Source: an uncultured Candidatus Saccharibacteria bacterium (lineage in GTDB: Bacteria; Patescibacteriota; JABMPQ01; JAQVVF01). Taken from it: a stretch of DNA of 64,000 nucleotides. Each line of letters begins with the position of its first letter. The stretch's first letter is position 1. The notes below the pieces were generated by a model. It was given only the letters and a program-made list of their open reading frames with translations. It did not search any database and was not told the DNA's origin. Made by a program: the position numbers and the translations under genes. This document shows, in pieces, positions 1-54,806 of this stretch. The stretch is from positions 535,020 through 599,019 of the forward strand of contig CAZNOH010000001.1 in assembly GCA_964574655.1 (NCBI GenBank), given 5' to 3'.

Positions 1-141
1 TTAAAAGCACAGAGCAATATTGATCCAATAGCTGAATATGAAAATTGCGCTACTCTATATGACAAGGATAATGAATATTTAAAAGAAAAAAATCCTAAAA
101 AGAATTGGGTTAATTATGAATATGAAGATGTTAATAGCTTT

Positions 142-1134
142 ATGAATGATATTCCTAAAACTATGCAGAATGAAAAAATTTGCTATTTTAATATTGACGG
201 ACTTTACGATTTAGCTAAAGTGTGGGATTACTCTGCTGCTTCCGAAACAAATAGTTTTGATTATTCATTTAAAGGCTTTGCAGCGATCAAAACATATTTG
301 GCAGAAGAAGATCTAAATTTTAGTTTTGATTATCAAGACTTAAACAGCTTGCAAGAAAAGAGTGATTTTAATGTTTTTGTTTTTAAGGGCGATGAAAAGA
401 TTTTAGAAAAAAATATTTCTGATGATGGTAATGAAAATGGCGATGAAGTTTTTTCTGATATTAAAAATTTAAGTATTATAATTCCTAATTTGCAAGCAGG
501 TCTTTATAATATCTATCTTGACGCAAATGATGATGTTGAATTTAATTCTTTTACAACAAAACAAAAATATTGGGTTTTTGTTAATACATTGAATCTTTCT
601 GATCCTGAAAAAAGTGTCGATTTGTATTCTAATAGTGGAAATATGGCATTTACTGCTTTACATGATTCATCTCTGCAAACTATTTTAATTAATAAAGAAA
701 AAGGAATGGTTACTGAATCTGGTCCTGAATTTCAAAAAAAGGAATTGGATATCATAAAAATTGATAAGCCTTATATTTTTAGCAGAAATATTTATTCTAA
801 AATATCTTTGCCAAAAGCAGATTTAAATATTAATTTCAACAATTTAGTTTCGACAAACATTGAATCTTTACAAGCATTAAGTACAAATAATTTAGTTAAT
901 TTTTCTGATTTTGCAAAATTCAATGAAGAAAGTTGTAATTATATAATTTCAGATTATTTTGAAAAGCCTGATGAAAAAAACGGCACAATAACAGCTTCAG
1001 TTGATTTCGATGTTAAAGACTTGTTTCTTGATGAAAATAATAATTTTAATTTGTTGCTGGTATTTCCTCAATACAATCGCAATGATGCTGGTGATGTTAA
1101 AATTAGTAGAATTGATTTAAAATATAGCCGTTAA
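142..1134 (+). CDS. hypothetical protein, N/D/K-rich, host-like AT-rich codon usage
   Basis: Long ORF from the track; no recognisable motif; composition matches the host genes. Confidence 0.4.
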   Translation: MNDIPKTMQNEKICYFNIDGLYDLAKVWDYSAASETNSFDYSFKGFAAIKTYLAEEDLNFSFDYQDLNSLQEKSDFNVFVFKGDEKILEKNISDDGNENGDEVFSDIKNLSIIIPNLQAGLYNIYLDANDDVEFNSFTTKQKYWVFVNTLNLSDPEKSVDLYSNSGNMAFTALHDSSLQTILINKEKGMVTESGPEFQKKELDIIKIDKPYIFSRNIYSKISLPKADLNINFNNLVSTNIESLQALSTNNLVNFSDFAKFNEESCNYIISDYFEKPDEKNGTITASVDFDVKDLFLDENNNFNLLLVFPQYNRNDAGDVKISRIDLKYSR

Positions 1135-3000: not shown

Positions 3001-4155
3001 TTATATTTTTGCTAATTTCTTAATGTCCTTAATTTTGTCTGTTTTTTCCCAAGTAAAATCCTTATCATTTCGACCAAAGTGTCCGTAAGCTGCTGTTTTT
3101 TTATAAATTGGTCGTTTTAATTTCAAAGTTTCGATTATTCCTTCTGGAGTTAAATCAAAAACTTGTCTGATTATTTTTTCAATTTGTTCGCTACTTATTT
3201 TGGAGGTTCCGTGAGTATTGACTAAAATACTGATTGGATCAGCTACTCCGATGACATAAGCAATCTGGATTTCGCAACGATCTGCCAAGCCAGATGCAAC
3301 AATATTTTTGGCAATATATCTGGCCATATAAGAACCTGAACGATCAACCTTTGATGGATCCTTGCCAGAGAAACAACCACCGCCATGGCTTCCATGACCG
3401 CCATATGTATCGACGATAATTTTTCTACCTGTCAAACCACAGTCTGCAGGAGGACCGCCTTTGATAAATTTACCTGTAGCATTGACAAAAAATTTAGTTT
3501 TTCTTGTAAGCCATTTTTCGCAAACTGGTTTAATTACTTTTTCAATGATATCTTTTCTAATTTGAGCAAGCTTGACTTCAGGATTGTGCTGAGCAGCAAT
3601 TACAACAGTATTAATTCTTTTTGGTTTTCCGTCTTCATATTCAATAGCTACTTCGGATTTGCCATCTGGCCTTAGATAGCTAAGTGTTTTATTTTTTCTA
3701 ACTTCTGCTAATTTTTGACTAAGTTTATGAGCTAGAATAATTGGAAGAGGCATTAATTCTGGCGTTTCGTTTGTAGCGTAACCGAACATTAATCCTTGAT
3801 CGCCTGCTCCTTGTTTTTTCTTTTTAGTTTTGTTGACACCAATTGCGATGTCAGGACTTTGTTCATCTATGCTAACAATGATACCGCAGTCATCATGATG
3901 AAAACCGTAATCATGTTTCGTATATCCAATCTCTTTAATTGTTTTTCTAGCAATTTTTGCAATGTCAACATAGGCTTTTGTTGTAATCTCGCCAGCAACA
4001 ACAACTAATCCTGTTGTGACTAAAGTTTCACAACCAACTCTTGAATCTGGATCTTGTTTTAATAATTCATCTAGAATTGAATCTGAAATTTGATCTGCTA
4101 CTTTGTCAGGATGACCCTCTGTTACTGATTCGGATGTAAAGATGTACTTGTTCAT
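3001..4155 (-). CDS. metK: S-adenosylmethionine synthetase
   Basis: N-terminus [20 protein letters not shown] and the [16 protein letters not shown] motif are diagnostic of MetK. Confidence 0.9.
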
Positions 4156-4175
4156 TATTTTAAGTTAATTTATTT

Positions 4176-5099
4176 TTATTTACTTTTAAACCATTCATAA
4201 GTCATTTTAAGCCCGTCTTCTAATTTTACTTTTGGCTCCCAATTTAATTCTTGTTTAATCTTTGTGTTGTCTATGGCACTTGTTTTTTGATCACCTAGTC
4301 TTGCCTCTCCATGTTTTTCAGAAATACTTTGACCTGAAATTTTGGTTAGATTCTGAAAGATAGCATTAATATCTGTTTGAATTCCTGTGCCGACATTATA
4401 AATATTTTGTGATTTTTCGCTTTTTAAAGCTAGCAGATTTGCGTTTGCAACATCTTTGACAAAAACATAGTCTCTTGTACATTTGCCATCGCCGTTGATT
4501 ATTGGTTGTTCATTATTCACAATCTTTTGGCAAAAAATTGCAACAACTCCTGCTTCACCAAAAGGATCTTGCTTTGGACCATAAACATTGGCATAACGTA
4601 GAATAGTATAGTTTAACTTATTTAGAAAATTGAAGCAATATAAATATTTTTCAACGGCTAATTTTGTGACACCATAAGGAGAGACAGGTTTTGCTTCGTA
4701 ATTCTCTGGAGTTGGTAAAACATCAGCATCGCCATAAAGAGCGCCGCCTGTTGAAGCGAAAATTAGCTTTTTGATATTATGTTTTATTGCTAATTTAAAA
4801 ATATTTATTGATCCTAAAATATTATTTTCAGCATCACTGATTGGATCTTTGACAGATTCTGGGACTGAGGCATGAGCTGCCTGATGGCAAATGTATTCTG
4901 GCTTTTCTTGTTCGAAAATCTTTTCTATTTCATCAAAATTCTTAATATCTGCTTGATAAAATTTTGCTTTTTCATTTAAGTTTTCTTTTTTGCCAGTTGA
5001 TAAATTATCAATAATAACTACCTCATTGTTTTCTTCAATTAGTTTATCAGCAATGTGCGAGCCAATAAACCCCGCACCACCTGTAATTAATATTTTCAT
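4176..5099 (-). CDS. NAD-dependent epimerase/dehydratase (GalE-like UDP-sugar 4-epimerase family)
   Basis: GGAGFIGSH Rossmann motif plus a YxxxK catalytic region (YGVTK); sits inside the sugar-nucleotide cluster. Confidence 0.7.
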   Translation of the reverse strand: MKILITGGAGFIGSHIADKLIEENNEVVIIDNLSTGKKENLNEKAKFYQADIKNFDEIEKIFEQEKPEYICHQAAHASVPESVKDPISDAENNILGSINIFKLAIKHNIKKLIFASTGGALYGDADVLPTPENYEAKPVSPYGVTKLAVEKYLYCFNFLNKLNYTILRYANVYGPKQDPFGEAGVVAIFCQKIVNNEQPIINGDGKCTRDYVFVKDVANANLLALKSEKSQNIYNVGTGIQTDINAIFQNLTKISGQSISEKHGEARLGDQKTSAIDNTKIKQELNWEPKVKLEDGLKMTYEWFKSK

Positions 5100-8472: not shown

Positions 8473-8488
8473 AGTTTTTAATTAATCG

Positions 8489-8603
8489 TAAAAAACAAAT
8501 TCCAAATTCCAAACAAATTGCAAACCACAAATTACAAAAATTTTAGTAAATAGTTTTGTGTTTTGTAATTTAGAATTTGTTTGGTATTTGTGATTTGTGA
8601 TTT
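8489..8603. repeat. long imperfect palindromic element (CAAATT/ACAAA-word family)
   Basis: Arms aaacaaattccaaattccaaacaaattgcaaacc... and ...ggtatttgtgatttgtgattt; a related copy at about 28960-29088 shares ccaaattacaaaa. Confidence 0.5.
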
Positions 8604-8609
8604 CGAAAA

Positions 8610-9626
8610 TTATCTTTGGACATATTGCTTTTTGTAATAATTCAAGTACTCACCAGTCTTAATTTTTTTCCACCAATCTAAATTATTTTTGTACCAAGAA
8701 ATAGTTTGAGCAATACCTGAATCAAAAGAATACATAGGCTCCCAGCCTAATTCTGCTTTTATTTTTGCAACATCAACTGCGTAACGGCGATCATGACCAG
8801 CGCGATCTTTGACATATTCAATTGATTTTTCGTCTTTATTGCAAGCGCTAACGATTCTTTTTGTTAAATCTAAATTTGGAATTTCTGGATTTTGATTTGC
8901 ACCAATATTATAAATCTCTCCGTCCTTGCCCTTATGCAAAACTAAATCAATCGCAAAACAATGATCATCAACGTGCAACCAATCACGAATTTGCTGACCA
9001 TCGCCATAGACAGGGACAGTCTTGCCTTCTAAAAGATTTGTAATAAATAATGGAATAATTTTTTCTGGATATTGGTAAGGTCCATAATTATTAGTGCATC
9101 TTGTAATCATTACTGGCAAGTTGTAAGTTCTGCTGAATGCTAAAACTTGCAAGTCTCCGCCAGCTTTTGAGGCAGCATATGGTGATGACGGCCTTAGAAG
9201 ATCTGTTTCTTTGGCAAATCCACCATTATCAAAATCACCATAAACTTCATCTGTTGAAATTTGAATATAGCGCTTTATATTATGATCTTTGACAGCATTA
9301 AGTAAAATGTGAGTGCCAAAAACATCCGTATTAATAAAATCACCAGGATTCATAATTGACCGGTCAACATGCGTCTCTGCGGCAAAGTTAATGATGCTAT
9401 CTGGCTTTTGGACTGAAATTAAACTATTGACTAATTTGTCATCAGCAATATCACCTTTGAAAAATTGATAACGAGGATCTTTATCAATGCCTTTTAAATT
9501 TTCAAAATTACCAGCATAAGTAACTTTGTCAAAATTTACAATTTGATAACTTTCATATTTTGCAAGCATGTAGCGAATAAAATTGCTACCGATAAAACCT
9601 AGACCTCCTGTAATTAGGATTTTCAT
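8610..9626 (-). CDS. rmlB: dTDP-glucose 4,6-dehydratase
   Basis: GGLGFIGSNF Rossmann motif, YAASKAGGD catalytic region, length about 340 aa. Confidence 0.85.
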   Translation of the reverse strand: MKILITGGLGFIGSNFIRYMLAKYESYQIVNFDKVTYAGNFENLKGIDKDPRYQFFKGDIADDKLVNSLISVQKPDSIINFAAETHVDRSIMNPGDFINTDVFGTHILLNAVKDHNIKRYIQISTDEVYGDFDNGGFAKETDLLRPSSPYAASKAGGDLQVLAFSRTYNLPVMITRCTNNYGPYQYPEKIIPLFITNLLEGKTVPVYGDGQQIRDWLHVDDHCFAIDLVLHKGKDGEIYNIGANQNPEIPNLDLTKRIVSACNKDEKSIEYVKDRAGHDRRYAVDVAKIKAELGWEPMYSFDSGIAQTISWYKNNLDWWKKIKTGEYLNYYKKQYVQR

Positions 9627-9777: not shown

Positions 9778-10185
9778 TAATACTTTTTTAATTTTCTTAA
9801 TAATTTTTTCAGCTTCTGTTGCTCGGTATCCTTGTCTTTGTGGCCAAAGCTTTAAACCATCTTTCGCTAATCTTGGAATAACATGAAAATGGACATGATT
9901 AATTTTTTGGCCAGCAACTTTGCCATTATTTATGCTCAAGTTAAATCCTTTAACTTTCAGGCTTTTCATAATTGCCTTGCCGACTTTTTTAGAAACTAAA
10001 ATCATTTCTGACAATACTTTGTCTTGAACATCAACCATTGTATCAAAATGCTTTTTAGTGACAACTAAAATATGTCCAGGATTTACTGGCATAATATCTA
10101 AAATTGCCATCAAATTTTTATTCTCAAAAATGATGTCTGATGGAATTTCCTTTTTTGCTATTTTACAAAAAATACAATCTTTCAT
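9775..10185 (-). CDS. HIT-family (histidine triad) nucleotide hydrolase/transferase
   Basis: HVHFHVIPR histidine-triad motif near the C-terminus. Confidence 0.7.
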   Translation of the reverse strand: MKDCIFCKIAKKEIPSDIIFENKNLMAILDIMPVNPGHILVVTKKHFDTMVDVQDKVLSEMILVSKKVGKAIMKSLKVKGFNLSINNGKVAGQKINHVHFHVIPRLAKDGLKLWPQRQGYRATEAEKIIKKIKKVL

Positions 10186-10188
10186 AAA

Positions 10189-10668
10189 TTATAATTTTGC
10201 CCAATTAAAACCAATCTTTGGATCATTGTGCGGGATTCTTTGTTCGTCTGGCTTTTTAGGATTATACGGTCTCGTTGTATGATAAAAAAGCAAAACTGGT
10301 TTTCTTCCTTGCGCTTTATAGCCATGAGCAACGCCGATTGGAATTAAAACTAGCTTTGGATCTTTTTCTGCATTGCATTCGATGATTTGAGTATTACCAA
10401 AAGTTTTTGATTTTTTGCGAGTGTCATATAAAACAATAGTTGCCTTACCTGTTGCAAAAAACCAAAGATCGTCTTGTTTTTTGTGCCAGTGAAAAGCTTT
10501 GATTGTGCCTGGGTGCGCAACTGTAAAAGTTGTTTGACCAAACTTGGTTAATAACTTTTCATCTGCTCGTAGAATTTCCATTAAATGCCCTGCCTTTACT
10601 TTTTTCTGATCTAAGTCTGGCTGATCTTTCCAAATTTTTATTTGTTTGATTCTCACTCCGCTTATCAT
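10189..10668 (-). CDS. rmlC: cupin, dTDP-4-dehydrorhamnose 3,5-epimerase-like
   Basis: Cupin core with FHWHKKQ, IPIGVAHGY and DPKIGFNW resembling RmlC GLHFQ / IPPGFAHGF / DPELGIDW; follows rmlABD in the same orientation. Confidence 0.55.
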   Translation of the reverse strand: MISGVRIKQIKIWKDQPDLDQKKVKAGHLMEILRADEKLLTKFGQTTFTVAHPGTIKAFHWHKKQDDLWFFATGKATIVLYDTRKKSKTFGNTQIIECNAEKDPKLVLIPIGVAHGYKAQGRKPVLLFYHTTRPYNPKKPDEQRIPHNDPKIGFNWAKL

Positions 10669-10982: not shown

Positions 10983-12161
10983 CTAAATTTCTATTTTACG
11001 TAAATTAAAAGATAACTCTTCTCTATTTTGAAGAGTTTTTTCATATATAATTTCTGTTTCTAAACTTAGGATATCCCAATTATAATTCTCTAGAGCATAA
11101 GCTTTAGCTTTTTCGCCTTTTTCAATTATCAAATCTGTTCTTTTATTTAAGATTTCTAATTTTGAAGCAAGGTCAGAAATATTTTTGTTCATAAATAAGT
11201 AACCTAATCCTGCGAATGCTTCAATGTTTTCTGGAATATTAGAAACTAGAACACATCTTCCATGGCTCATTGCTTCTAAGACAGTAGTTGGCAAACCTTC
11301 AGCTTCTGAAGGCTGTACGTAAAGATAGGCTTTTTTATAAAGCATATGTAAATCTTTGCCAAATACAGCACCGGTTAAAATAATGTTTGGATTGCTTCTA
11401 GCTTTTTCTTTAATGAATTTTACATAATCATCTGTGCATGCTGAATCACCGACAATAACTAATTTTTTGTCAGTTTTAATTTTGTTGAATGCATCAATAA
11501 GATAGTGAATGCCTTTGTGTTTAACTAAACGGCCAACAGTCAAAATGTATTTGTTCTGTTCTAAATTTAATTTTTCTAAAACATCACTTTCTTGATTTTT
11601 AAGATCTAAAAAGTTAATTCCGTTTGGAATATAAACTGTCTTGGTGTTGTATCTTTCTTTGGCAATTTGCCTTAGAATTTTTGAGACAACAATTGTCTGA
11701 TGAGCAAATTTGCATATTGCCCATTCACCAAATTTTAAATATTTGCGAGCTACGAAGCCCCATTTTTGATGATATTGATCTTGGCAGTGAAATGTTGAGA
11801 TAATTTTTGATTTTGTAAATAATCTAGCAATAAAAGCTAGCGTTGATGGTCCAACACCTTGATAATGAATAATATCGTATTTTTGAAATAAAGCGTGAAA
11901 TGTAGAAATTATGGTATGCGAAATCGCGTCAAAATTTTTTGAGTTGATTGAAGGCAAGGAAATTAATCTGACGTTTTTGTAGAATTTAATGTTTGGGTCA
12001 GAATAATTTGGTCTTGAGTAAGCAAAAACTTCATGGCCTTGCTTGGCCAATCTAGTTGCTAAATCTTCTACGTGTCTTTCAACACCGCCCGATTTAGCTG
12101 GAAGTCCTTTTTGTCCGATAAATGCGATTTTCATAAATATAATACGAATATACGAATGCAT
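10983..12161 (-). CDS. glycosyltransferase family 4
   Basis: N-terminal GT4 fold (KGLPAKSGGVERHV) and a C-terminal EAEGLP-type motif. Confidence 0.7.
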   Translation of the reverse strand: MHSYIRIIFMKIAFIGQKGLPAKSGGVERHVEDLATRLAKQGHEVFAYSRPNYSDPNIKFYKNVRLISLPSINSKNFDAISHTIISTFHALFQKYDIIHYQGVGPSTLAFIARLFTKSKIISTFHCQDQYHQKWGFVARKYLKFGEWAICKFAHQTIVVSKILRQIAKERYNTKTVYIPNGINFLDLKNQESDVLEKLNLEQNKYILTVGRLVKHKGIHYLIDAFNKIKTDKKLVIVGDSACTDDYVKFIKEKARSNPNIILTGAVFGKDLHMLYKKAYLYVQPSEAEGLPTTVLEAMSHGRCVLVSNIPENIEAFAGLGYLFMNKNISDLASKLEILNKRTDLIIEKGEKAKAYALENYNWDILSLETEIIYEKTLQNREELSFNLRKIEI

Positions 12162-12503
12162 GCTAATCTACGAATATGCAAATATTCTGATACAAATTTA
12201 GCCCTGCATAACATATATTGAATTTTTGGGTTATTTTGTAAGTCTTATTACAGACCTATAAATATAGCACTTTTTGTATGTTCCGTCAAGGCTTTTTTGT
12301 AAATCTTTGTTTTTTTGGCTTGTTTAAGACATTTCCATTTGGACTGAATATCTTAGCAAATTGTAGTTCTAGTGTCAAGGTTTACTGTGGATAAAACACT
12401 TTAACTAATAAAAAAAGCGTACAAAAGTTGTACGCGATGAACAAGATTGTTATTCAGCAACATTTTTATATAACATATTTATATCTTGCTAATTTCATTT
12501 TGT

Positions 12504-12512
12504 TGGTATAAT
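12504..12512 (+). promoter_or_regulatory. extended -10 promoter element (TGgTATAAT) for the 12551 ORFan
   Basis: tggtataat lies 39-47 nt upstream of the ATG; a TTGCTA-like -35 sits 15 nt upstream. Confidence 0.4.
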
Positions 12513-12550
12513 ATAACTTGAAGTTTGCACCTTAAAGAAGGAGGGACAGA

Positions 12551-13054
12551 ATGACATTAAAAGTCGGGCAAGCTGTTATAATTCGAATATTGGAAGAAGG
12601 TGTTTGTCAGCGCCTGCTTGATGCTTTTGTAGAACGACTTGAGCCACTGACGTTCAGAGTTGCAACTACAGGTAGCTATTGGCACAAAAAATTTCAATTA
12701 TCTCAATGCGAATTTATTGCTCTAGGCCGTATGGAACCGAAGATCTACTGGTTCTGCAGACATACTATTCCTGATCCTCAAGGATTAGGTCAAAAACTAG
12801 ATCTTCGTCTTGTTGCCATTTCAGCATTGTGCGAGGTAACTGCTTGGGAAATTCTTTTCAGATCCCAGGGTGCCAAAATCGGTGATGCTGACTGTGACTT
12901 GCCTACTTTTAAGCAACATTTTCATATTGAAGCTACGACCAGCAACATGGACACTGAAGGAGTGTTGATCATCCACGATTGCTCCTTAGTCGCACCTTTT
13001 TGGATTGCTGATTCTGAGCCTTGCTATACGATTGAGAATATGAAACTGCGTTGA
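12551..13054 (+). CDS. ORFan protein (167 aa) in an intermediate-GC, strong-RBS cassette
   Basis: AAGGAGGG 6 nt before the ATG; G+C and codon usage clearly richer than neighbours; no recognisable domain. Confidence 0.5.
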   Translation: MTLKVGQAVIIRILEEGVCQRLLDAFVERLEPLTFRVATTGSYWHKKFQLSQCEFIALGRMEPKIYWFCRHTIPDPQGLGQKLDLRLVAISALCEVTAWEILFRSQGAKIGDADCDLPTFKQHFHIEATTSNMDTEGVLIIHDCSLVAPFWIADSEPCYTIENMKLR

Positions 13055-13083
13055 TATATTGCACAAGTTTTTTTAAAAAAAAT

Positions 13084-13108
13084 AATCAGCTTTCTAGGCT
13101 GATTTTTC
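13084..13108. terminator. bidirectional intrinsic terminator (ATCAGC-tttctagg-GCTGAT flanked by an A-run and a T-run)
   Basis: Perfect 6 bp stem followed by TTTTT on the plus strand with an A-run before it; lies between convergent genes. Confidence 0.55.
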
Positions 13109-13128
13109 TTGCTTGTTTTATTATATAA

Positions 13129-14343
13129 TTATTTTAATCCCCTGTAAATTTTGATTATTTGTTGATAATGGTCTTCTGAACTATATTTTTGTTCAACAAG
13201 CTTTTTGGCATTATCGCCCATTTTTTTAGCTAGTTCTCGATTGCTGGCTAAGTCGTTTATTTTGCTTGCTAAATCCTGACTATCACCTGTTTTGAATAAT
13301 AAGCCAGTTTGTTTATCTTTGACTATCTCTGGCAAGGCGCCTAAGTTAGATGCAATTACAGGTTTTGCTAAAGCGTAATTTTCTAGAATTGATAAACCAA
13401 AAGTTTCATAAACTTCTGAGGGATGAATTATGAATTGAGAATTGTTAATTTCTTGCTGTATTTTTTCTTGATCCAAAAAACCTAAATACTTAATGTTATT
13501 TAGATTCTCTTTTTTAGCTAAATTCTTAAATTCTTGTTCATCTAGTCCTGATCCTGCGATATGTAATTCAATATTTTTAACATTTTTCATGGCTTTGATC
13601 AAAGTCTTGATTCCTTTTTCTTTAATTAAACGGCCGAAATATAAAATATAGTTTTGCTGATTTTGTGGTTGAATCTCATTATACTCTGTAAAAATAAATT
13701 CAGGCAAAATAGTAATTTGATCAGGCTTAATGATGCCAAATTCTAGAATTTTGTCATAAACAAATTTGCTTGGAGCTAAAAATAAATTAACATTATTTTC
13801 ATAAATTCTGATTAGCTTGTGAAAATACATTTCTTTAGACGCAAGCGCGCTTTGCCAAAATTTGTTTTTAATGCATTTTCTAAATGTGCATTTGTAATAG
13901 CGATATTTTTTGCATTGCTCGCAAAGTTCATTCTTTGAATATAGCGTGTAATTTGGACAAATTAATTTAAAATCATGCAGAGTTTCAACAACTGGAATTT
14001 TGTATTTTTTCGCGACTGTCAAAATTGATGGCGAAATTTGATGGTAAATATTATGAATATGAATTAGATCTGGCTTGGTATCAATAATTAATTGCTCAAA
14101 CTTTTTCTTAGCTTCAAATGAATACAATACTCTTCTGGCTTTTTTAAAATTATAGCCTGGCTTTTCAAAATTAATGTTGCTTACAAAATATTTAGAATAT
14201 TTGCTTGGATAATTTTTTTCATCTTGCATTGAAAAAGGAATGACTTCATGACCCTTTGATTCAAGCAATTTTGTTAAATTAAAATAGTAGCGTTCTGCAC
14301 CGCCTTTTACATAATGAAACTTATTGGCTTGGATTATCTTCAT
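13129..14343 (-). CDS. glycosyltransferase family 4
   Basis: GT4-like N-terminal domain and a conserved C-terminal E-x7-E region (EVYETFGLSILE). Confidence 0.7.
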   Translation of the reverse strand: MKIIQANKFHYVKGGAERYYFNLTKLLESKGHEVIPFSMQDEKNYPSKYSKYFVSNINFEKPGYNFKKARRVLYSFEAKKKFEQLIIDTKPDLIHIHNIYHQISPSILTVAKKYKIPVVETLHDFKLICPNYTLYSKNELCEQCKKYRYYKCTFRKCIKNKFWQSALASKEMYFHKLIRIYENNVNLFLAPSKFVYDKILEFGIIKPDQITILPEFIFTEYNEIQPQNQQNYILYFGRLIKEKGIKTLIKAMKNVKNIELHIAGSGLDEQEFKNLAKKENLNNIKYLGFLDQEKIQQEINNSQFIIHPSEVYETFGLSILENYALAKPVIASNLGALPEIVKDKQTGLLFKTGDSQDLASKINDLASNRELAKKMGDNAKKLVEQKYSSEDHYQQIIKIYRGLK

Positions 14344-14360
14344 ATGTTACTTTTTATATC

Positions 14361-14432
14361 GTCATCTCGAGCGAAGCGAGAGATCCCGTAATTCTATAAA
14401 TTCACGGAATTCCTCACTTCGTTCGGAATGAC
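14361..14432. repeat. palindromic repeat GTCATCTCGAGCGAAGCGAG...CGTTCGGAATGAC (REP/MITE-like)
   Basis: Roughly 30 bp imperfect inverted arms; second copy at 19831-19907; partial cgaagcgaag motif also at about 38215-38235. Confidence 0.55.
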
Positions 14433-14437
14433 ATGTG

Positions 14438-15886
14438 CTATTTTTGGTCTAGCTGATACATTTTATACAAGCTGACAATTAACCCCATAGCTATCCAATA
14501 AAATATATTAAGCATATTTGTAACTAAATACAAGGAGAAAAGCAGGCCAACACAGGTTGCAACGTAAAATGCAAATAAAGCAATTAATTCAGGCATTTCT
14601 TCAATTTTGGTTTTGTAGAGCTTAATAAAATATTTTATTAAATAATAATTGATAAATAAAAATGGAATAAGACCGATGATTCCAGCTTGAATTAAGACTC
14701 CCAATAGCTCATTATGCAAAGCACGCATTTCTACAGTTGAAACAAATCCTTTGAATTCGACATTAAGCATTTTTCCAAAACCAATACCTAGAATTGGATT
14801 TTTGGCATATTGCACTAATCCTTCTTGCCAGGCTTTCAAACGCCAGCCAGCTGCTTCCTCGATGTTGCCAGATTTTAGAGTAAATAAAGACTGAACTCTT
14901 TCTGTAAATCTTTGCGCATAAGTAGAGGCTTTAATATTTATATCTGCATTTAACATGGCTGTAATCCAGATGAACAATGAAAAAACAATTAGGACAACGA
15001 GCAAAATTCCAAAAATATTTTTCAAAGCAACTTTTCTTTTTTCTTTGTCTGATAAGAGAAAAATTGTGGCAAGGCCGGATAAAAATCCAAGCCAAAGATG
15101 TCGATGCATACCAGCAACAATGCCAACTGATTGGACTAAAATGACTGCTTGAGTTTTGATGTGGCCATAAATTTCTTTGCCATATATTAAAAAGACTATT
15201 GCAATAAAGACTGGCAGTAAAAGATAATAGGTATGCGTCTGAGCTAAGAATCTTGTTCCTGGAGTAAATTCACTCCACAAACCATTTCCAGTAGCTAAGC
15301 CATAAATAACAAAGCCAATTAAAATAATACCGCCTGCAAGAAAAACTTTGATAATTCTTTTGAACTGAACTTTTGTTCTAATTATAAATATTGTTAAAAA
15401 TAAAATTAATAAATAGCTGTAGTTCTTAAATGTTGCTAAAGCTAATTCTTTGTCAGGATTTTTGATAATGCTATAAACTAGAGCTGCTATCAAGGCTAGA
15501 AAAAAGATGAATGTTGCTTTTTCTAATCTGGTGTATCTTATTTCTTTACTATTGAGATTTCCAAAATGATGAATCAAAAAACTGATAAAAGTAATAATTA
15601 GCAAAACGTCAATTGGATAAATCTTGTAGATATTAATGTCTAGAATAATTGGCTGCAAGGTAAAGAATCTTTCATAAATCATTGTACAAAGGATAATTGT
15701 GTACAAGCCAACTTCTGGGACTTTTAGAATAAATAACGAGGCAAATCCAATTCCGAAAAGATATAAATAAATATTAAAAGGTATAAAAAGGGTTGGTAGG
15801 ATAAAAATGCTGACATAAATAAAACAAAGCACAGTATAGATTGTGGATTTTGATAAATTCTGAATTTTGTTTTTGATTGATGCCAT
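14438..15886 (-). CDS. O-antigen ligase/polymerase-like polytopic membrane protein (Wzy_C-like)
   Basis: About 10-12 predicted TM helices with a large loop; context among GT4 genes. Confidence 0.5.
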   Translation of the reverse strand: MASIKNKIQNLSKSTIYTVLCFIYVSIFILPTLFIPFNIYLYLFGIGFASLFILKVPEVGLYTIILCTMIYERFFTLQPIILDINIYKIYPIDVLLIITFISFLIHHFGNLNSKEIRYTRLEKATFIFFLALIAALVYSIIKNPDKELALATFKNYSYLLILFLTIFIIRTKVQFKRIIKVFLAGGIILIGFVIYGLATGNGLWSEFTPGTRFLAQTHTYYLLLPVFIAIVFLIYGKEIYGHIKTQAVILVQSVGIVAGMHRHLWLGFLSGLATIFLLSDKEKRKVALKNIFGILLVVLIVFSLFIWITAMLNADINIKASTYAQRFTERVQSLFTLKSGNIEEAAGWRLKAWQEGLVQYAKNPILGIGFGKMLNVEFKGFVSTVEMRALHNELLGVLIQAGIIGLIPFLFINYYLIKYFIKLYKTKIEEMPELIALFAFYVATCVGLLFSLYLVTNMLNIFYWIAMGLIVSLYKMYQLDQK

Positions 15887-15957
15887 ATCAGTATATGTTT
15901 TTAGATTAACATAATTTTTGAATAAAAAAAAGCAGTATTAAATTGGTAACTGCTTGA

Positions 15958-16066: not shown

Positions 16067-16150
16067 TGGTGCCCGGAGCGGGATTCGAACCCGCATGTCT
16101 TGCGACGGAGGATTTTAAGTCCCCTGCGGCTACCTTTTCGCCATCCGGGC
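16067..16150 (-). tRNA. tRNA-Leu (anticodon TAA), long variable arm, CCA encoded
   Basis: Reverse complement folds as a cloverleaf: acceptor GCCCGGA/TCCGGGC, anticodon loop CTTAAAA, long variable arm, T-arm GGTTCGAATCC. Confidence 0.8.
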
Positions 16151-16272: not shown

Positions 16273-16554
16273 AACTCGGTTTTTTCTTGTTTAAGGCTCG
16301 GCTTTTTACTTAAAGATTTAATGTATTTTTATATTATTTTTGCTAGATAATTATAATTTTGAAACATGTGCAAAGCCGAGCCTTTTAAATCAATGCTCTT
16401 ACTATAAATTAAAAGGTTCGGCCTTATCAAAAATCCATATCTAAATTGCTTAACAAAATTATTCTAAGATATGTATTGTTTTCTTCAATCAAAAGACCGA
16501 ACCTTGTACTAAAAAATTCATTCTTTAACTCTCATTCTTTGAACTCGGTTTTCG
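16273..16554. repeat. nested inverted-repeat pairs bounded by a direct repeat, between tRNA-Leu and the high-GC block
   Basis: AACTCGGTTTT at 16273 and 16542; AAGGCTCGGCTTT (16293) vs AAAGCCGAGCCTT (16372); AAGGTTCGGCCTT (16411) vs AAGaCCGAACCTT (16491). Confidence 0.45.
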
Positions 16555-16691
16555 AAAAAGCATTGGAGTGAGCACAAAAAAAGAGCCCACTGAAAGTGAA
16601 CTCTTGAAGGAACGAACGCTGAAAGAACTGGAATTGTTGGAGAGAAGCCGCACCCGACGCACTTGCGTTTGTCGGATGGGAACTGAAGATT

Positions 16692-17276
16692 CTAGGGGAG
16701 CTTGAGGTAGTGGCCGCCGGAGGGATCCGACATGATCTTGAGACCATCGTAGACGTTGCATCCGACGACGGTCAGCCAGTCTTCGCCACTCCGAGGCCAC
16801 GCGGAATCGACACCAGCAGGAATCATCGCGCAAGCACCGTTGTTCGCCGTCTGCAGAGCGCAGACCGGCTCGACCCCAGGAGGCATGCACCCGAAGGTCC
16901 ACGCACCGAGGCCGACGATGTTGCCGCAGATCTGGCCGTTGTCGATCCACACCTCGCATATATCGGTGTCGGGCGGATTGTTGGGCACGCACTGGGTCTG
17001 GCCCGCCTGGCACTCGTTGCCACCTTCGCCTTCGCCCTCGCAGCCGCAGTCGCACCCCTCGCCCTCGCCTTCGCCACCGTCCACCACGCCACTGTCCGTC
17101 TCACCCTCGCCCTCGTTGCCCTCACCTTCTCCTTCTCCCTCACCTTCACCCTCGCCCTCGACGCCCTCACCCTCGCCCTCGTTGCCGTTGTCCTCCATGT
17201 CCTTCTCGCGCAGGGCGCAGTTCGTGTTGATGATCGTCAGGCCGAACAGGATCCACATCGTCGCGCGCTTCATCAC
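16692..17276 (-). CDS. secreted protein with (EG)n repeat and Cys-rich C-terminal domain, in the high-GC island
   Basis: GGAGGAGG RBS; N-terminal signal peptide; GEGEGEGEG tract; 14 cysteines; GC-rich codon usage unlike the host. Confidence 0.5.
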   Translation of the reverse strand: MMKRATMWILFGLTIINTNCALREKDMEDNGNEGEGEGVEGEGEGEGEGEGEGNEGEGETDSGVVDGGEGEGEGCDCGCEGEGEGGNECQAGQTQCVPNNPPDTDICEVWIDNGQICGNIVGLGAWTFGCMPPGVEPVCALQTANNGACAMIPAGVDSAWPRSGEDWLTVVGCNVYDGLKIMSDPSGGHYLKLP

Positions 17277-17351
17277 AGCACCTCCTCCTCTCTCGTTGAC
17301 TCACCCGAACCGGGCGCTCGACTCCTTGCGAAGCCGAGCGCCCGGACGACT

Positions 17352-18416
17352 CTAGAACCGCACGCCGAAGTTACCGGCGCCGGACTTGATCATCTGCCAC
17401 CCACGCCGGTCCTCCACGTCACCCTTGAGCTCGCCACGCATCTCGTAGATGAACGACCAGCCCTCGAGCTTCGCGAGTTCTCCGACGAATCCCACGCCAC
17501 CACCGACCTCACCGCGACCGAAGTACATGTGGGTGTCGAGGTCGAACGTCCTGCCGATCAGACAGAAGTGTGGCTTGATCCACTGCTTCCAGTCGTACTC
17601 GGCGTTCAGCTCGAACCCGGCAGCACCGACCTCGTTGGCCTTGCCGTACTGCGCGCCCACCCCGATGGTCCAGCTCTCGCTGACCGGGAAGTTGACACGG
17701 AGCATGGCTCCGACGAAGTTGTCGCGCTCGGGGCTCCAGAGGTACTGTCCGACCAGGTCGTAGGTGATGTTCACCTTGGCCTCGCCGTCGTCACCCCTGC
17801 AATCCATCACGTCGCACTTCGTGTCCTTGTTCACGTCCTCATCACCATCACACTTGTAGTTTTCATTGCTGTCCCAGCACTGGACCGACGGCTTGGGCAG
17901 GCAGTCTTCCACGAGCCGGATGATAGCACCGCGCTGCCCTTCCTGGGCTCGCGTGAACATCGTCCCCTCGCGGATTCTGTTGCCGTTGACACCGATCTCC
18001 ATCAGCTTGTTCATCATGTAGCTCGCCCGCGCCCGCGCCCGAACAGCCCTGAGCGGATCCTGACCCCCAGCAGCGCGCACCTCTGCGGTGCCGCCGAACG
18101 GGGTCACGTCCTCCACCCCGCTGACTTCCAGGCATCCGAACTGAGCGGTATCCAGAGTAGCCTTGGCGCCGTTGAGGGCGTCGGTCCACTCCGTCTTCCA
18201 GCTCACGTTCTGCCCGGTCAGGTCGGCGTTGAGGAACGTCCAGATCTTCTTCTGCGCGGTTGCCCGGTCTTCCTCGGCCACGGGGGCCTCGGGAGCCGGC
18301 TGCGCGTAGGCGATCTGTCCCTCCTCGTCGTCCATCCAGAAGTAGTTGTAGGGGTTGATGTTGAAGAAACCGCAGATGAAAACCACCACCATCAGCCAGT
18401 TGATCTTGCGCTTCAT
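17352..18416 (-). CDS. outer-membrane-protein-like protein (OmpA-like segment, Asp-rich Ca-binding-like motif, C-terminal Phe), in the high-GC island
   Basis: RBS GAGGAGG; signal peptide; segment RAVRARARASYMMNKLMEIGVNGNRIR resembles the OmpA C-terminal domain; CDGDEDVNKDTKCDVMDCRGDDGE; alternating beta-strand-like C-terminal half ending GVRF. Confidence 0.45.
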   Translation of the reverse strand: MKRKINWLMVVVFICGFFNINPYNYFWMDDEEGQIAYAQPAPEAPVAEEDRATAQKKIWTFLNADLTGQNVSWKTEWTDALNGAKATLDTAQFGCLEVSGVEDVTPFGGTAEVRAAGGQDPLRAVRARARASYMMNKLMEIGVNGNRIREGTMFTRAQEGQRGAIIRLVEDCLPKPSVQCWDSNENYKCDGDEDVNKDTKCDVMDCRGDDGEAKVNITYDLVGQYLWSPERDNFVGAMLRVNFPVSESWTIGVGAQYGKANEVGAAGFELNAEYDWKQWIKPHFCLIGRTFDLDTHMYFGRGEVGGGVGFVGELAKLEGWSFIYEMRGELKGDVEDRRGWQMIKSGAGNFGVRF

Positions 18417-18674
18417 CGTCTTGCCCTCCTCATCCTCGTTCTCTCGTGTTGTAGGGTCCTAACCCTGTTGTCGGAATCTGTAGAAAGTAACATTGAATAC
18501 TAGCACAATTGAAAAAATTTGTCAACAGGATTTGATGGTTTTACCTTATATAAGCCAAAATTTAACTCTAATTTGTTATAATTATGTTTATTTGGTAAAA
18601 TAGAAGCATTAAGTTATAAGCTATAAGCTATATTTTCTTATTGCTTACAGCTTTTAGCTATAGCTCAAAAAAAC

Positions 18675-25063: not shown

Positions 25064-25423
25064 TCACTTAGGATGAACTTCAATGTCAAAATCTTTTTGA
25101 GACGCAGAGAGCTTGCTTTCGAGACGATGTACACAACTATCAAGAATCCTGTGAATCCAATCCTCATACTCTACTAAAAATAGGGGCGCTCTTTCAGAGA
25201 AGAAATTTGTTCTATCGAGATCGTGTACTACCTTTCTCGCATGTTCAGGCTTTAGCGATGCATTTTCCAACATAAAACAAATCCTACGGATGATCTCAAG
25301 GTACACTTCTCTTGCTTCATTAGGATAATCGTCATCTTCACTAAAGATTCCTTGTATGAGAATCAGATTTCGAAGCTCATCAATCAAAAGTTCGTGCAAC
25401 AATTTTTCTTTTGAATCTGCCAT
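25064..25423 (-). CDS. ORFan protein (119 aa from MADSKEK), second gene of a self-contained cassette
   Basis: GGAGGAAAAC RBS before ATGGCAGAT; intermediate G+C; a terminator hairpin AAGTGAG-agtaa-CTCACTT plus T-run overlaps the stop. Confidence 0.45.
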   Translation of the reverse strand: MADSKEKLLHELLIDELRNLILIQGIFSEDDDYPNEAREVYLEIIRRICFMLENASLKPEHARKVVHDLDRTNFFSERAPLFLVEYEDWIHRILDSCVHRLESKLSASQKDFDIEVHPK

Positions 25424-25458
25424 GTTTTCCTCCTGTCTCAAGGTACGGCCAACTCTTT

Positions 25459-31086: not shown

Positions 31087-31131
31087 TATTTGATCTGAAA
31101 GGTGCCACAAAAAGTGGCAAGGAGGAAGATA

Positions 31132-31548
31132 ATGGGAATGGTACGCGCATGCACTGGACAGCAATCTGAAAAAACAATCGGAAGTGTTCTAAAAAGTGTA
31201 ACTCCTTTTGTTGGATCTGATCGCGAAGGTGAAATTTCGCAATTGGGCATTGGATTGATTGATGGTACTTCTGCGTCTTTTTGGGGTTTGCTAGTACCAC
31301 ATCTGGTTATCAGATCATGGCGTGCAATGAAGATTTTGGAGCAACTGCAAACTATTCAGGCAGACTCTCTATGCGCATGCTACTATGCAGCAAGGCGTGA
31401 AATTGATGATACAAATAAAAACTTGATTGAGAGTCTTGCTAATCTTTTCGGCGGTATCAATAAATTCGAGGCAGTTCGCAGAACAGTTCTGGCAAGCGCT
31501 CCTAGCGCTGATGAACTGAATGAAATGCTAGCAATTTTCCATGCATAA
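31132..31548 (+). CDS. ORFan protein (138 aa), first gene of a two-gene intermediate-GC cassette
   Basis: Strong RBS AAGGAGGA 6 nt upstream; the track ORF begins at a GTG at 31102 inside the UTR hairpin, but ATG 31132 is better supported. Confidence 0.45.
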   Translation: MGMVRACTGQQSEKTIGSVLKSVTPFVGSDREGEISQLGIGLIDGTSASFWGLLVPHLVIRSWRAMKILEQLQTIQADSLCACYYAARREIDDTNKNLIESLANLFGGINKFEAVRRTVLASAPSADELNEMLAIFHA

Positions 31549-31551
31549 GGC

Positions 31552-32181
31552 GTGGATGTTAGCTGTCATGAACTGAAGGAAGAGATCGAGTCTAAAAGAA
31601 TTTCTACTTCTCCTCTGATTGAGTCCTTGATTCGCGAAGCAGAAGAACGCAGTGTCGCCTATCAACGTCAGGAAGAGGAAATTAACAGACCATTGCCTCG
31701 CGAGGAAAGTCTTGGCGCTTTTTTTGAAGATCTTCAGATTGGCAATTTCATCATTGGCAGTGGAATTGGCGGATATGGCATGGACTGGGGACATATCGAA
31801 TTGTCAAATCTGGATAAGATAGCCAAACAAGCTAGTTTAAGCAAACACTGTCCCGATGGACACAGGCTGGAGCATACTACTAAAGGTCCATATACGCGTA
31901 TTGTAAAGGGGTCTGGCATTACTATGTACACGACTTCGTTTGGTGAAATCGAACAGCCTTGGTTTGTTGCCAAAGACGGCACTCATTATACTTTCCTGTT
32001 TGCCAAATTCCGTGAAGGATATTTTCATGTCAGAGTGGCAATCACAAGACCTGGAAACGAGGAAGTTCTCAAAGAAGAACATACTCTTGTTGAACTGCGA
32101 GCCATGATTGGAGAACTACCGCCAAGGCCCGTGATGAAATCTGGCTTGCTATCTAGGTTTGCATCTTTGATTGGCCTGTAA
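31552..32181 (+). CDS. ORFan protein (209 aa), second gene of the cassette
   Basis: Starts 4 nt after the upstream stop; no recognised domain. Confidence 0.45.
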   Translation: MDVSCHELKEEIESKRISTSPLIESLIREAEERSVAYQRQEEEINRPLPREESLGAFFEDLQIGNFIIGSGIGGYGMDWGHIELSNLDKIAKQASLSKHCPDGHRLEHTTKGPYTRIVKGSGITMYTTSFGEIEQPWFVAKDGTHYTFLFAKFREGYFHVRVAITRPGNEEVLKEEHTLVELRAMIGELPPRPVMKSGLLSRFASLIGL

Positions 32182-38523: not shown

Positions 38524-39153
38524 ATGGCAATTGGAAAATATGAACTAAAAAAGGCAATGAAAGGCACAAAAACATCATGGTCGCAACGCGGAGGACAAAC
38601 TGCAAAAAATATTATGAAGCAAGCTCCGGGCCACAAAATGTCAACTTATGAAACCAAGCAATTTTTGAATGAATCAGGAATGAGTAAATCCGGTGTAAAA
38701 GAAGTAATGGGAACGTTGAATCAGCCTACTCAGCCAAAACAAGAATCTTTCCAGAAACCAGATGCGCCAAAAACAAGAGAAATAAAAGGACAGGAACCGC
38801 AAAAAGGCGGCGTGAAAACGCCAGGATGGGTGGAAAAAGTGGAAAAACAAGGCGAAATAGCACCGCAAAAAACTTTTGGCAAGCAAATACAAGAAGATGT
38901 TAGATTACAAAAAGCGGGACAGCCGCAGCAAGGCGGACAAAGACAACCAAGCTCTGATGTTGATCGCAGTCGATATACACAAGAAGAAGTTGATAGATTA
39001 GAGCAAAAAGGGCAAACAGAATATTATGATAAAGCTTCGCAATCAAGCAAATTTGATAAATTAGACGAAGCAGAAGATGCCAATGCTGCAAAGATTGATG
39101 CGATGCTAGGCGGAGGAGGCGGGGGCGAAAATTCTGGGAGTAGAGAAAAATAA
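38524..39153 (+). CDS. low-complexity Q/K/G-rich, probably disordered protein
   Basis: Long ORF without hydrophobic core; TTTAAA-16-TATAAT promoter-like sequence upstream; intermediate G+C. Confidence 0.4.
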   Translation: MAIGKYELKKAMKGTKTSWSQRGGQTAKNIMKQAPGHKMSTYETKQFLNESGMSKSGVKEVMGTLNQPTQPKQESFQKPDAPKTREIKGQEPQKGGVKTPGWVEKVEKQGEIAPQKTFGKQIQEDVRLQKAGQPQQGGQRQPSSDVDRSRYTQEEVDRLEQKGQTEYYDKASQSSKFDKLDEAEDANAAKIDAMLGGGGGGENSGSREK

Positions 39154-53568: not shown

Positions 53569-53622
53569 AGATAATTGCACATTATATTTCACCTGCCGAG
53601 AACGGCAGGATTGGAGGTTAAA

Positions 53623-54772: not shown

Positions 54773-54806
54773 GAAATTGGGTAGCTAAGTGTCGGAGGGA
54801 AACAAC

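Follow-up and report, generated by a model that had tools for sequence, protein, structure and literature searches.

The open reading frame (ORF) at 12551..13054 on the + strand of the window, as we call the whole 64-kb stretch of DNA analyzed here, is a real coding gene. Our preferred explanation, which we consider probable, is that it represents an ordinary, fast-evolving, lineage-specific gene that encodes a small, soluble protein with two modules and has for a long time occupied the same slot of a cell-surface glycan cluster. Under the same explanation, the gene would be autonomous and monocistronic, lie on the strand opposite to the glycan operon, and experience relaxed but real purifying selection. 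It would also be dispensable, as it was lost in one sister clade and two lineages keep only one module. The original prediction had described an acquired cassette, and every sequence feature it claimed is present in the DNA. However, the proposal of an insertion specific to this genome was refuted by synteny of the GT4-GT4 junction, where three other lineages carry diverged homologs at the same position and in the same orientation. The presence of such homologs in this slot marks the gene as part of a family (hereafter family X) and not a recent insertion.

The ORF, taken from the ORF list, starts with ATG, ends with a stop codon at 13052-13054, and encodes 167 aa. We divided the protein into an N-terminal module (residues 1-59; 12551-12727) and a C-terminal module (residues 60-167; 12728-13051). 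It is soluble, mildly acidic (pI 5.7), and Cys-rich, with neither a transmembrane segment nor a signal peptide found in the 167 residues. Its coding nature was established by comparison with its relatives. Homologs align along their whole length, all indels within the family X alignment are in frame, and identity by codon position (0.60/0.62/0.43) is lowest at the third. The dN/dS ratio is 0.22-0.41. In the three longer members, 28 columns show no variation, among them W, C, and the CE(V/T)TAWE and EPC motifs. Between the window and L012, dN is 0.53 for the ORF and 0.06-0.11 for its neighbours, such that the ORF evolves 5-9 times faster than they do. Truncated and deleted versions, together with high dN, are also expected of a decaying gene.

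Searches of about 15 billion proteins and the fetched loci identified only P0001, P0002, P0004, and a 59-aa ORF in L021 as members of family X, which as sampled is confined to one clade of Patescibacteria. The designation of "ORFan" was therefore nearly right: none of the profile libraries searched contains a match, but three relatives exist. At E values up to 1-10, the ORF had no match in Pfam, NCBIfam, PHROG, or PADLOC; its homologs likewise had none in Pfam. In PDB sequence-profile searches, queries built from the family as a whole or from either module returned only noise (E above 0.3). AlphaFold2 produced no confident fold, with a pLDDT of 31 from the single sequence and 40 from a 3-sequence alignment. 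Among known defence and TA systems, no model matched the ORF, and it had neither a conserved partner gene nor an antisense RNA recognized by Rfam. The sole Rfam match was a eukaryotic snoRNA model (E 0.18) lying on the T2 hairpin region described below, which is not a credible RNA. No paralogs of family X were found within the 64-kb window, and a literature search on glycan loci that vary among Patescibacteria brought up no relevant work. One further candidate, P0003 (603 aa, E 1e-9, seven stretches), was rejected: it is the translation of an 84-aa tandem repeat, and its score merely adds up weak matches to the repeats.

The closest of the three relatives is P0002 (169 aa, 44% identity, E 5.5e-24), which occurs in L012-L015 and L017. 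It is encoded on the + strand between the GT4-383 and GT4-407 orthologs, in convergent orientation. P0004 (114 aa, 34% identity, E 2e-5) corresponds to the C-terminal module only and adjoins the GT4-404 ortholog in L016. The third relative is the 59-aa ORF at the L021 junction, which comprises the N-terminal module only (about 38% identity). The flanking proteins are far better conserved, with 80-92% identity to the window for L012 and 73-92% for L012 and L021 together. L016 has one flanking gene in common with the window (81% identical). In every locus carrying family X, it adjoins the 3' end of the GT4-404 ortholog. The original prediction had named a gene with host-like codon usage at the same position in multiple relatives as evidence against itself, and diverged copies do occupy that position in three other lineages.

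Other genomes present a different picture of the slot. In the closest sequenced relative, L002, segment 12395..13083, which includes the ORF with its 5'UTR and promoter as well as T2, has no counterpart. A blastn synteny map and pairwise semi-global alignment showed that homology stops at 12394 and resumes at the T1 hairpin; between these points, L002 contains about 150 bp of unrelated sequence (11298-11449). One empty junction is common to L002, L018, and L019/L020, and no trace of family X remnants was found within it. The L002/L018/L019 sister clade thus appears to have lost family X. In the outgroups (L022/23, L024, L025, L026/27), the slot is occupied by an orthologous convergent gene of 694-1028 aa, which probably encodes a surface-exposed protein. 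Descent of family X from this large gene was considered and rejected, as hmmsearch, tblastx, and blastn detected no similarity. A tree of GT4-404 places the inner clade with family X nested within the outgroups, which orders the gains and losses, yet GT4-404 itself recombines.

In total, the slot was observed in five states over 10 loci (family X, empty, 59-aa, 114-aa, and 694-1028-aa gene), which supports the earlier proposal that its content varies between genomes. The flanks of the slot (rmlB, epimerase, GT4, Wzy, and Wzz) are conserved. L002 and L019 are 99-100% identical except in Wzy and GT4-404, where identity falls to 74-89% before rising again at the junction. These alignments indicate that the Wzy-GT4 module recombines and that the slot marks its breakpoint.

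Placement of the ORF between two GT4 genes of a polysaccharide cluster was likewise confirmed, as both neighbours are PF00534/PF13439 glycosyltransferases within an rml/Wzy/Wzz cluster. GT4-404 (13129..14343, - strand; Pfam PF00534 and PF13439) is convergent with the ORF, and its orthologs share 58-86% identity over 10 loci. On the other side, GT4-392 (10983-12161, - strand) was identified by Pfam and lies downstream of T2. With the sites found by promoter scan, its unit spans 10983..12378. These promoter-like sites are TTGACA-17-TAAGAT (12378..12350) and TTGACG-17-TATATT (12289..12261), and the region upstream of GT4-392 is conserved in L002, L012, L018, L019, and L021. Both flanking GT4s exceed the cut-off for PF20706 (34.5 and 32.9 bits vs 26), a GT4-conflict family, but score 3-4 times higher on PF00534, PF13692, and PF13439.

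The base composition of the ORF, originally described as intermediate in G+C, is mildly atypical but does not appear distinctive. Its G+C is 0.423, whereas genes average 0.338 (z = 2.06) and the genome has about 31%; GC3 is 0.351 vs 0.256 (z 1.88). By codon log-odds, it ranks as the 4th least host-like of 58 genes. Seven other small genes in the window that lack Pfam matches have similar G+C (0.38-0.44). ORF G+C of 0.37-0.42 (GC1 about 0.5) also stands apart from the AT-rich, stop-rich local intergenic DNA (0.27-0.31). No integrase, transposase, or other mobility gene lies beside the ORF, and no tRNA is adjacent; the nearest, tRNA-Leu, is 3 kb away with two genes between. Scans of phages, plasmids, viral contigs, and metagenomes for family X returned only the L014/L017 contig, which had been identified before. 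A 44-nt imperfect inverted repeat (12375-12418 / 13111-13154; 73%) was discarded, as 7 of 60 shuffles matched it and its right arm falls within the part of GT4-404 that codes for protein. With G+C and codon usage mildly atypical, the gene could nevertheless have come from a foreign source at an older date, when the clade arose.

The expression signals upstream of the ORF are strong. A predicted sigma-70-type promoter (12486..12514, + strand) was read from the sequence, with TTGCTA as the -35 element (12486-12491) and, across a 15-nt spacer, the TG-extended -10 element TGgTATAAT at 12504-12512. An alternative -10 reading, TAATAT (12509-12514), lies 17 nt from the -35. The extended -10 was claimed correctly, as TGGTATAAT occupies exactly 12504-12512, with the ATG 39 nt further on. 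TGNTATAAT by itself is not rare, occurring 10 times in the window vs 5.1 expected. The corresponding cores are TTGCAA-17-TAATAT in L012, TTGAAA-17-TATATT in L016, and TTGTAT-17-TATAAT in L021. None of these has TG at -15/-14, such that the extension is not conserved, while the -35/17/-10 core and the Shine-Dalgarno (SD) sequence are conserved in all four lineages (window, L012, L016, and L021).

The short 5'UTR (12524..12550, + strand) contains a conserved box, TTTGCACCTTAAAGAA, and the SD GGAGGGA (12540-12546). By alignment, GCACC(C/T)TA(G/A)A(A/G)A and GGAGGGAC are conserved across the window, L012, and L016. The box is thus present in three of the four lineages; L021 retains the SD GGAGGGA only. 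The strong ribosome binding site was borne out: AAGGAGGG is located at 12538-12545, with ATG 5 nt later. The arrangement AAGGAGGG-N3-8-ATG occurs once in 64 kb, with 0.06 expected, and the SD of the ORF is the strongest in the window. A second conserved ORF within the transcription unit was sought and not found. These data support the description of a single-gene, self-contained transcription unit encoding an orphan protein of mildly atypical composition.

Two terminator-like hairpins bracket this unit. T1 (13084..13104) has an ATCAGC / GCTGAT stem and is common to the ORF (+) and GT4-404 (-), located 30 nt past the ORF stop and 24 nt past that of GT4-404. A terminator scan classified it as terminator-like on both strands, with a stem of 7-9 bp flanked by an A-run and a T-run, giving T-rich tails on both strands. 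Energetically it is modest (-8.8 and -8.9 kcal/mol, z about -2). Its stem is invariant and its loop variable in L002, L012, L016, L018, L019, L021, and L022. Of these, L002, L018, and L019 lack family X and L022 is an outgroup with another cargo gene. The claimed bidirectional terminator is therefore present, but it is not part of a cassette, as it occurs in relatives without the ORF. Its presence there, and beside a different cargo, indicates that T1 is GT4-404's own terminator, and by this comparison it predates the gene with which GT4-404 now shares it.

The second hairpin, T2 (12410..12435, - strand), was detected by the same scan and resembles an intrinsic terminator, with an 8-bp stem (12417-12424 / 12428-12435) followed by U7 (12416-12410). 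Its arms, GCGTACAA-aag-TTGTACGC at 12417-12435, contain four G-C pairs. The predicted fold has an energy of -10 kcal/mol (z = -5.1), and none of 200 shuffles was equally good. The minus-strand terminator had been correctly recognized, although its limits (12414-12436) included flanking A's. In L012 both the hairpin, in a slightly shifted register, and the U-run are conserved; T2 is absent from L021, L016, and the empty junctions. T1, T2, and the promoter are consensus-level predictions, with T2 conserved in only one other lineage.

The role originally assigned to T2, protection of the ORF against antisense transcription, did not survive this analysis. Leftward transcription meets T2 only after crossing the ORF, so T2 cannot shield it from antisense RNA. 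Given this arrangement, T2 could only stop leftward transcripts ahead of the conserved GT4-392 promoters. We propose that the promoter at 12486-12514 drives rightward transcription that would end at T1. As T1 also serves as the GT4-404 terminator, it would limit antisense transcription into the ORF. T2 may then halt leftward RNA that crossed or arose within the unit before it reached the GT4-392 promoters. Such RNA could stem from read-through of T1 or from divergent transcription starting at the -10 region, which is symmetric and rich in A+T.

Several other explanations for this locus were weighed. A structured RNA in place of a protein gene would account for locally raised G+C in an AT-rich genome, but is practically dismissed by the codon-position substitution pattern, the in-frame indels, the SD with ATG, and the absence of any Rfam match beyond the E 0.18 snoRNA model at T2. 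A recently acquired foreign single-gene cassette with its own insulating terminators is in keeping with the higher G+C (0.42 vs 0.34), the unusual codon usage, a variable slot, and the missing segment in L002, the closest GTDB relative. Nonetheless, this reading is very improbable. Homologs of 34-44% identity share the slot, orientation, promoter core, and SD in L012-17 (L016 among them) and L021, T1 is older than the gene, and the composition is matched by seven other window genes. Nor is there an integrase, a significant flanking repeat, an adjacent tRNA, or any relative in phages, plasmids, or viral contigs. Only slightly less improbable is de novo birth, or overprinting, within the junction after deletion of the large convergent ancestral gene. 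About 15 billion proteins include no homolog from beyond the clade, in outgroups the place is taken by a different, large gene, and there is no confident fold, all as expected of a new gene. However, the ORF has no similarity to the large gene or the flanks in any frame, its G+C is well above that of the stop-rich local intergenic DNA, and its two modules with conserved Cys and Trp motifs resemble a mature protein.

Somewhat more credible, but still unlikely, is a decaying relic, a non-functional or nearly neutral leftover that is still open in this genome. Loss in the L002/L018/L019 clade, retention of the C-module alone in L016 and the N-module alone in L021, the high dN relative to neighbours, and the failure of AlphaFold2 to find a confident fold would all suit such decay. 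Against it, dN/dS is <1, indels remain in frame, 28 columns do not vary among the three longer members, and a strong SD and promoter core are kept in all four lineages, truncated ones included. An open frame of 167 codons is also improbable in AT-rich DNA absent selection. We assign a similarly low probability to a conflict gene, i.e. an immunity, antitoxin, phage-defence, or counter-defence protein engaged in an arms race within a phage-exposed glycan locus. Its fast divergence, presence/absence polymorphism, modular truncation, and strong, constitutive-looking predicted expression signals fit this role, as do its site at the recombination breakpoint of a serotype-like module and the secondary PF20706 matches of the flanking GT4s. 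However, PADLOC and PHROG gave no match even at E up to 10, no conserved partner gene adjoins the ORF, and the GT4s fit generic GT families far better in what is a classical rml/Wzy/Wzz cluster. At this resolution, a dN/dS of <1 also gives no indication of positive selection.

We therefore retain the long-resident, fast-evolving accessory gene as the preferred explanation. The protein itself may be a non-essential cytoplasmic accessory factor of the variable glycan module, acting as a modulator or in a conflict/immunity-type role, an assignment we make with low confidence. A function tied to the glycan module is suggested because the slot is the Wzy-GT4 breakpoint and because outgroups carry there a large gene for a probably surface-exposed protein. 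A bolder and, in our estimation, unlikely proposal is that family X constitutes a new fold or family and that, in episymbiotic Patescibacteria, its proteins are made at high levels in the cytoplasm as dedicated partners of the exchangeable Wzy-GT4 module. Such a partner might, for example, act as a factor for specificity or immunity, varying in step with the type of surface glycan and thereby aiding host or phage recognition. The two modules would then function independently, as the existence of N-only and C-only versions suggests. These episymbionts are presumed to attach to their hosts, and to be recognized by phages, through surface glycans. The locus would matter more if the protein indeed couples to the exchangeable module. 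As it stands, it is a well-documented case of an accessory gene that evolves fast, is restricted to one lineage, and occupies a variable glycan slot of a reduced Patescibacteria genome. It is also a cautionary case, in which atypical G+C, expression signals of the gene's own, and a missing counterpart in the nearest reference genome did not signify recent acquisition.

The slot resembles the variable, serotype-like regions of surface-polysaccharide loci, such as O-antigen and capsule clusters and the "flexible glycotype islands" of free-living bacteria. As in those loci, the slot is bordered by conserved rml, Wzz, Wzy, and GT genes but changes in content from one close relative to the next, and near-identical strains swap Wzy-GT4 for an allele of 74-89% identity with the breakpoint at the junction. 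In contrast, the cargo here is a small cytoplasmic protein with its own promoter that runs against the operon, and not a sugar-pathway enzyme, and the host has a Patescibacteria genome of 0.65 Mb. PF20706 GT4-conflict neighbourhoods share with this locus flanking GT4s that both pass the cut-off, but here the setting is rml/Wzy/Wzz and no other conflict-system component was found.

Like orphan bacterial genes in general, the ORF is short, restricted to a narrow clade, atypical in composition, fast-evolving, and patchily retained. It differs in that orthology of family X can be traced by position over four lineages, purifying selection is measurable, and its expression signals are unusually strong and conserved. 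Finally, the arrangement with GT4-404 is that of convergent gene pairs sharing a bidirectional intrinsic terminator, with one predicted hairpin at 13084-13104 serving both genes. Here, however, the terminator is older than the partner, and it occurs elsewhere alone or with another partner.

To establish whether the 167-codon ORF at 12551 to 13054 (plus strand, ATG start) encodes a protein, we searched for relatives of its product. Pfam, NCBIfam, PHROG and PADLOC models gave no match, and among 5.8 billion clusters a word-indexed search recovered no protein but the query, which is on record from a single 654-kb contig of a Patescibacteria bacterium. When 1.84 billion representatives were scanned exhaustively with HMMER, two true relatives emerged, both labeled 'Patescibacteria group bacterium'. 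P0002 (169 aa) is 44% identical across its full length (E 5.5e-24), while the match to P0004 (114 aa) is confined to residues 63-164. A 603-aa return of the same scan was rejected as a tandem-repeat artefact. A profile search yielded nothing further, and no additional relatives were present in the metagenome contigs, viral contigs, phage records and plasmid records scanned. Synteny supplied a fourth member, a 59-aa ORF in the related locus L021 whose match covers the 55 N-terminal residues. The ORFan status originally proposed is nearly correct: the protein belongs to a family, here family X, with three relatives in one clade.

Alignment of the three longer members at the nucleotide level showed that all indels were multiples of three and that conservation was lowest at third codon positions. 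Together with dN/dS values (NG86) of 0.22-0.41, this indicates a selected coding region. We conclude that the ORF is a genuine gene for a protein whose family is tiny. Its non-synonymous divergence is 5-9 times faster than that of its neighbors.

The gene lies between two minus-strand genes for GT4-type glycosyltransferases, GT4-392 (10983-12161) and GT4-404 (13129..14343), in a cluster that includes rmlB, a sugar epimerase, a HIT protein, Wzy and Wzz. The P0002 gene, present on the 645-kb contig L012 and on three further contigs, occupies the junction between the orthologs of these two genes; exactly as in the window, it lies on the strand opposite to theirs and converges with the GT4-404 ortholog. 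Flanking proteins of the window and L012 are 80-92% identical, compared to 44% for the ORF products. The P0004 gene (L016) and the 59-aa ORF (L021) hold the same position, adjoining the GT4-404 ortholog. Presence at one position in several relatives was originally named as the refutation of an acquired cassette, and it is what L012, L016 and L021 show. In L016, the place of GT4-392 is taken by a divergently oriented gene (2-913, minus strand) whose 304-aa product has a signal peptide and belongs to no known family, so the left boundary of the slot varies too.

Other relatives revealed different slot contents. The junction is empty in L002, the closest GTDB genome, and likewise in L018 and L019/L020. 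These have roughly 150 bp of unrelated sequence in place of window 12395-13083 and keep the GT4-392 promoter region and the downstream hairpin T1. In more distant loci (L022/23, L024, L025 and L026/27; GT4-404 58-73% identical), the slot holds an orthologous convergent gene of 694-1028 aa (L022 1591-3675, L024 1502-3184, L025 1463-2368 and L026 5250-8336, all minus strand). Its product has an N-terminal hydrophobic anchor and, in L026, FG-GAP repeats. These membrane-anchored proteins are 50-72% identical among themselves and show no similarity to family X in any frame. L022 also encodes a 169-aa glycine-zipper-like membrane protein (3843-4352, plus strand; G+C 0.44). Single-gene differences occur elsewhere in the cluster. 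L002 carries a DUF6016/cupin-like 158-aa gene (also in L012, L019 and L021), a NUDIX 178-aa gene and a 434-aa ORF, all absent from the window (window junctions 10186-10189, 8473-8610 and 15886-15914 versus L002 13625-14096, 15573-16096 and 5869-8486).

Expression signals of the gene were as originally described: an extended -10 element, TGGTATAAT (12504-12512, plus strand), and a ribosome-binding site, AAGGAGGG (12538-12545, plus strand), five bases 5' of the ATG. The extended -10 motif by itself is no rarity, with 10 copies in the window against 5.1 expected; the SD-plus-ATG pattern occurs once in 64 kb (0.06 expected). Transcription would begin a few bases past the -10 element, at about 12520, giving a transcript with a 30-nt leader that bears the strongest SD of the window and an end at T1, 30 nt past the stop codon. 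With a 17-nt spacer, the -35 and -10 elements read TTGCTA and TAATAT in the window, TTGCAA and TAATAT in L012, TTGAAA and TATATT in L016, and TTGTAT and TATAAT in L021. The SD GGAGGGA is alike in all four. A 5'UTR box (GCACCTTAAAGAA in the window, GCACCCTAGAAAA in L012 and L016) was not seen in L021. In L012, a hairpin-capable, G+C-rich insertion of 41 nt (9962-10002; GCCCGCC...GGCGGAC) separates this box from the SD. The annotated start of the L012 ortholog (ATGGAGGG) is probably the SD itself, with the true start 12 nt downstream (MKNEWQ). A second TGTTATAAT within the first codons of the window ORF (12574-12582, plus strand), over the conserved 'VIIRI' coding stretch, is probably fortuitous.

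Both predicted hairpins are present. T1 (13084-13104) is terminator-like on both strands in the terminator scan, if energetically modest (z about -2). It recurs in every locus examined, whether or not family X is there, and its stem is invariant whereas its loop varies. T1 is therefore primarily the putative terminator of GT4-404, common to the convergent ORF, rather than part of a cassette. T2 (GCGTACAA/TTGTACGC; 12417-12435, minus strand) is followed by seven U's and folds at -10 kcal/mol (z = -5.1 against shuffles). For leftward transcription T2 lies beyond the ORF, and so it cannot give the protection from antisense RNA proposed for it; antisense transcription into the ORF would instead be limited by T1. 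T2 could only keep leftward RNA out of the conserved GT4-392 promoter region (sites from the promoter scan at 12378..12350 and 12289..12261). Such RNA might come from read-through of the weak T1 or from a divergent transcript of the symmetric AT-rich -10 region. The hairpin plus U-run accompanies only full-length family X (window and L012); L021, L016 and the empty junctions lack it.

Composition was examined as a possible trace of transfer. The intermediate G+C noted originally was confirmed (42.3% versus a gene mean of 33.8%; z = 2.06), and among 58 genes ranked by synonymous-codon log-odds the ORF comes 4th from the least host-like end. This tail also holds seven small genes (116-209 aa) without a Pfam match that share its raised G+C (0.38-0.44) and weak host codon bias (25064-25441 and 48146-48496, minus strand; 31102-31548, 31552-32181, 38524-39153, 53575-54189 and 54789-55208, plus strand). 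Orphan genes as a class appear richer in G+C than the conserved core of the genome. Homologs of family X are nearer host composition (G+C 0.375 and 0.383), and the locus has no mobility gene and no significant flanking repeats. Either an old foreign origin or amino-acid and expression effects could underlie the composition of the ORF, which is no evidence for recent transfer. Elsewhere in the window, a 1.9-kb island (16500-18450) reaches 56-69% G+C in a roughly 31% G+C genome. Its two minus-strand ORFs (17352..18416 and 16692..17276) adjoin tRNA-Leu(taa) (16067..16150), have signal-peptide-like N-termini and lack Pfam matches; one has GEGEGE repeats and many Cys. The 354-aa gene of the island (GC3 = 0.85) is by far the least host-like of the window. 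As the island is conserved in place and still G+C-rich in L002 (64% aa identity) and L012 (49%), it is not a recent import, and yet it has not drifted towards the AT-rich composition of the host.

The family X protein is soluble (no transmembrane segment or signal peptide; pI 5.7), with three Cys kept in full-length members, and has two modules, each found alone in one lineage. The N-module (residues 1-59; motif GQxVxIRI) is predicted to be beta-rich by a low-confidence model (pLDDT about 40). The C-module (residues 60-167) contains the motifs IYWF, CE(V/T)TAWE and EPC. AlphaFold2 gave no usable fold (pLDDT 31 from a single sequence, 40 from a three-sequence alignment), and PDB profile searches returned only noise. 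Family X is dispensable, bears what read as strong expression signals, and is physically linked to the 3' end of a recombining Wzy-GT4-404 module. With low confidence, we favor a cytoplasmic accessory factor, non-essential and linked to the variable surface glycan, which might act as a modulator or be of the conflict/immunity type. A slowly decaying gene is the main alternative: the family is truncated in two lineages and evolves fast, while its substitution pattern is that of a selected coding region.

In a neighbor-joining tree of GT4-404, the loci that carry family X group with the empty ones in an inner clade, which is nested among the large-gene loci and in which the empty loci are monophyletic. 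In the most economical history, family X would have occupied the slot at the base of this small clade, diverged rapidly, and then been deleted once and truncated twice. Since GT4-404 itself recombines, its tree need not equal the organismal tree, and any tally of gain and loss events is tentative; homology of family X by position stands regardless. The original observation is correct, and its reading as an acquired, antisense-insulated cassette only partly right: the gene is an orphan in a variable slot, restricted to one clade and long in place.

Recombination of GT4-404 is evident between L002 and L019, which are 99-100% identical across 9.2 kb apart from Wzy plus GT4-404. That segment (L019 2600-5250; window equivalent 13129-15886) is 74-89% identical, a difference of 11-26%, and the return to high identity falls exactly at the GT4/GT4 junction. 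The drop indicates that the module was exchanged by homologous recombination with the slot as a breakpoint, which accounts for the differing slot states among close relatives. The main interest of the locus is as a clean example of a clade-restricted orphan in a variable glycan slot, and it may offer a handle on how glycan modules work in Patescibacteria. Orphan genes of this type, confined to a clade and set in a variable, recombining slot of a glycan locus, are a known kind of thing. Exchange of the Wzy-GT4-404 module is like that of serotype loci, and the difference between L002 and L019 is a serotype-switch-like allelic replacement in Patescibacteria.
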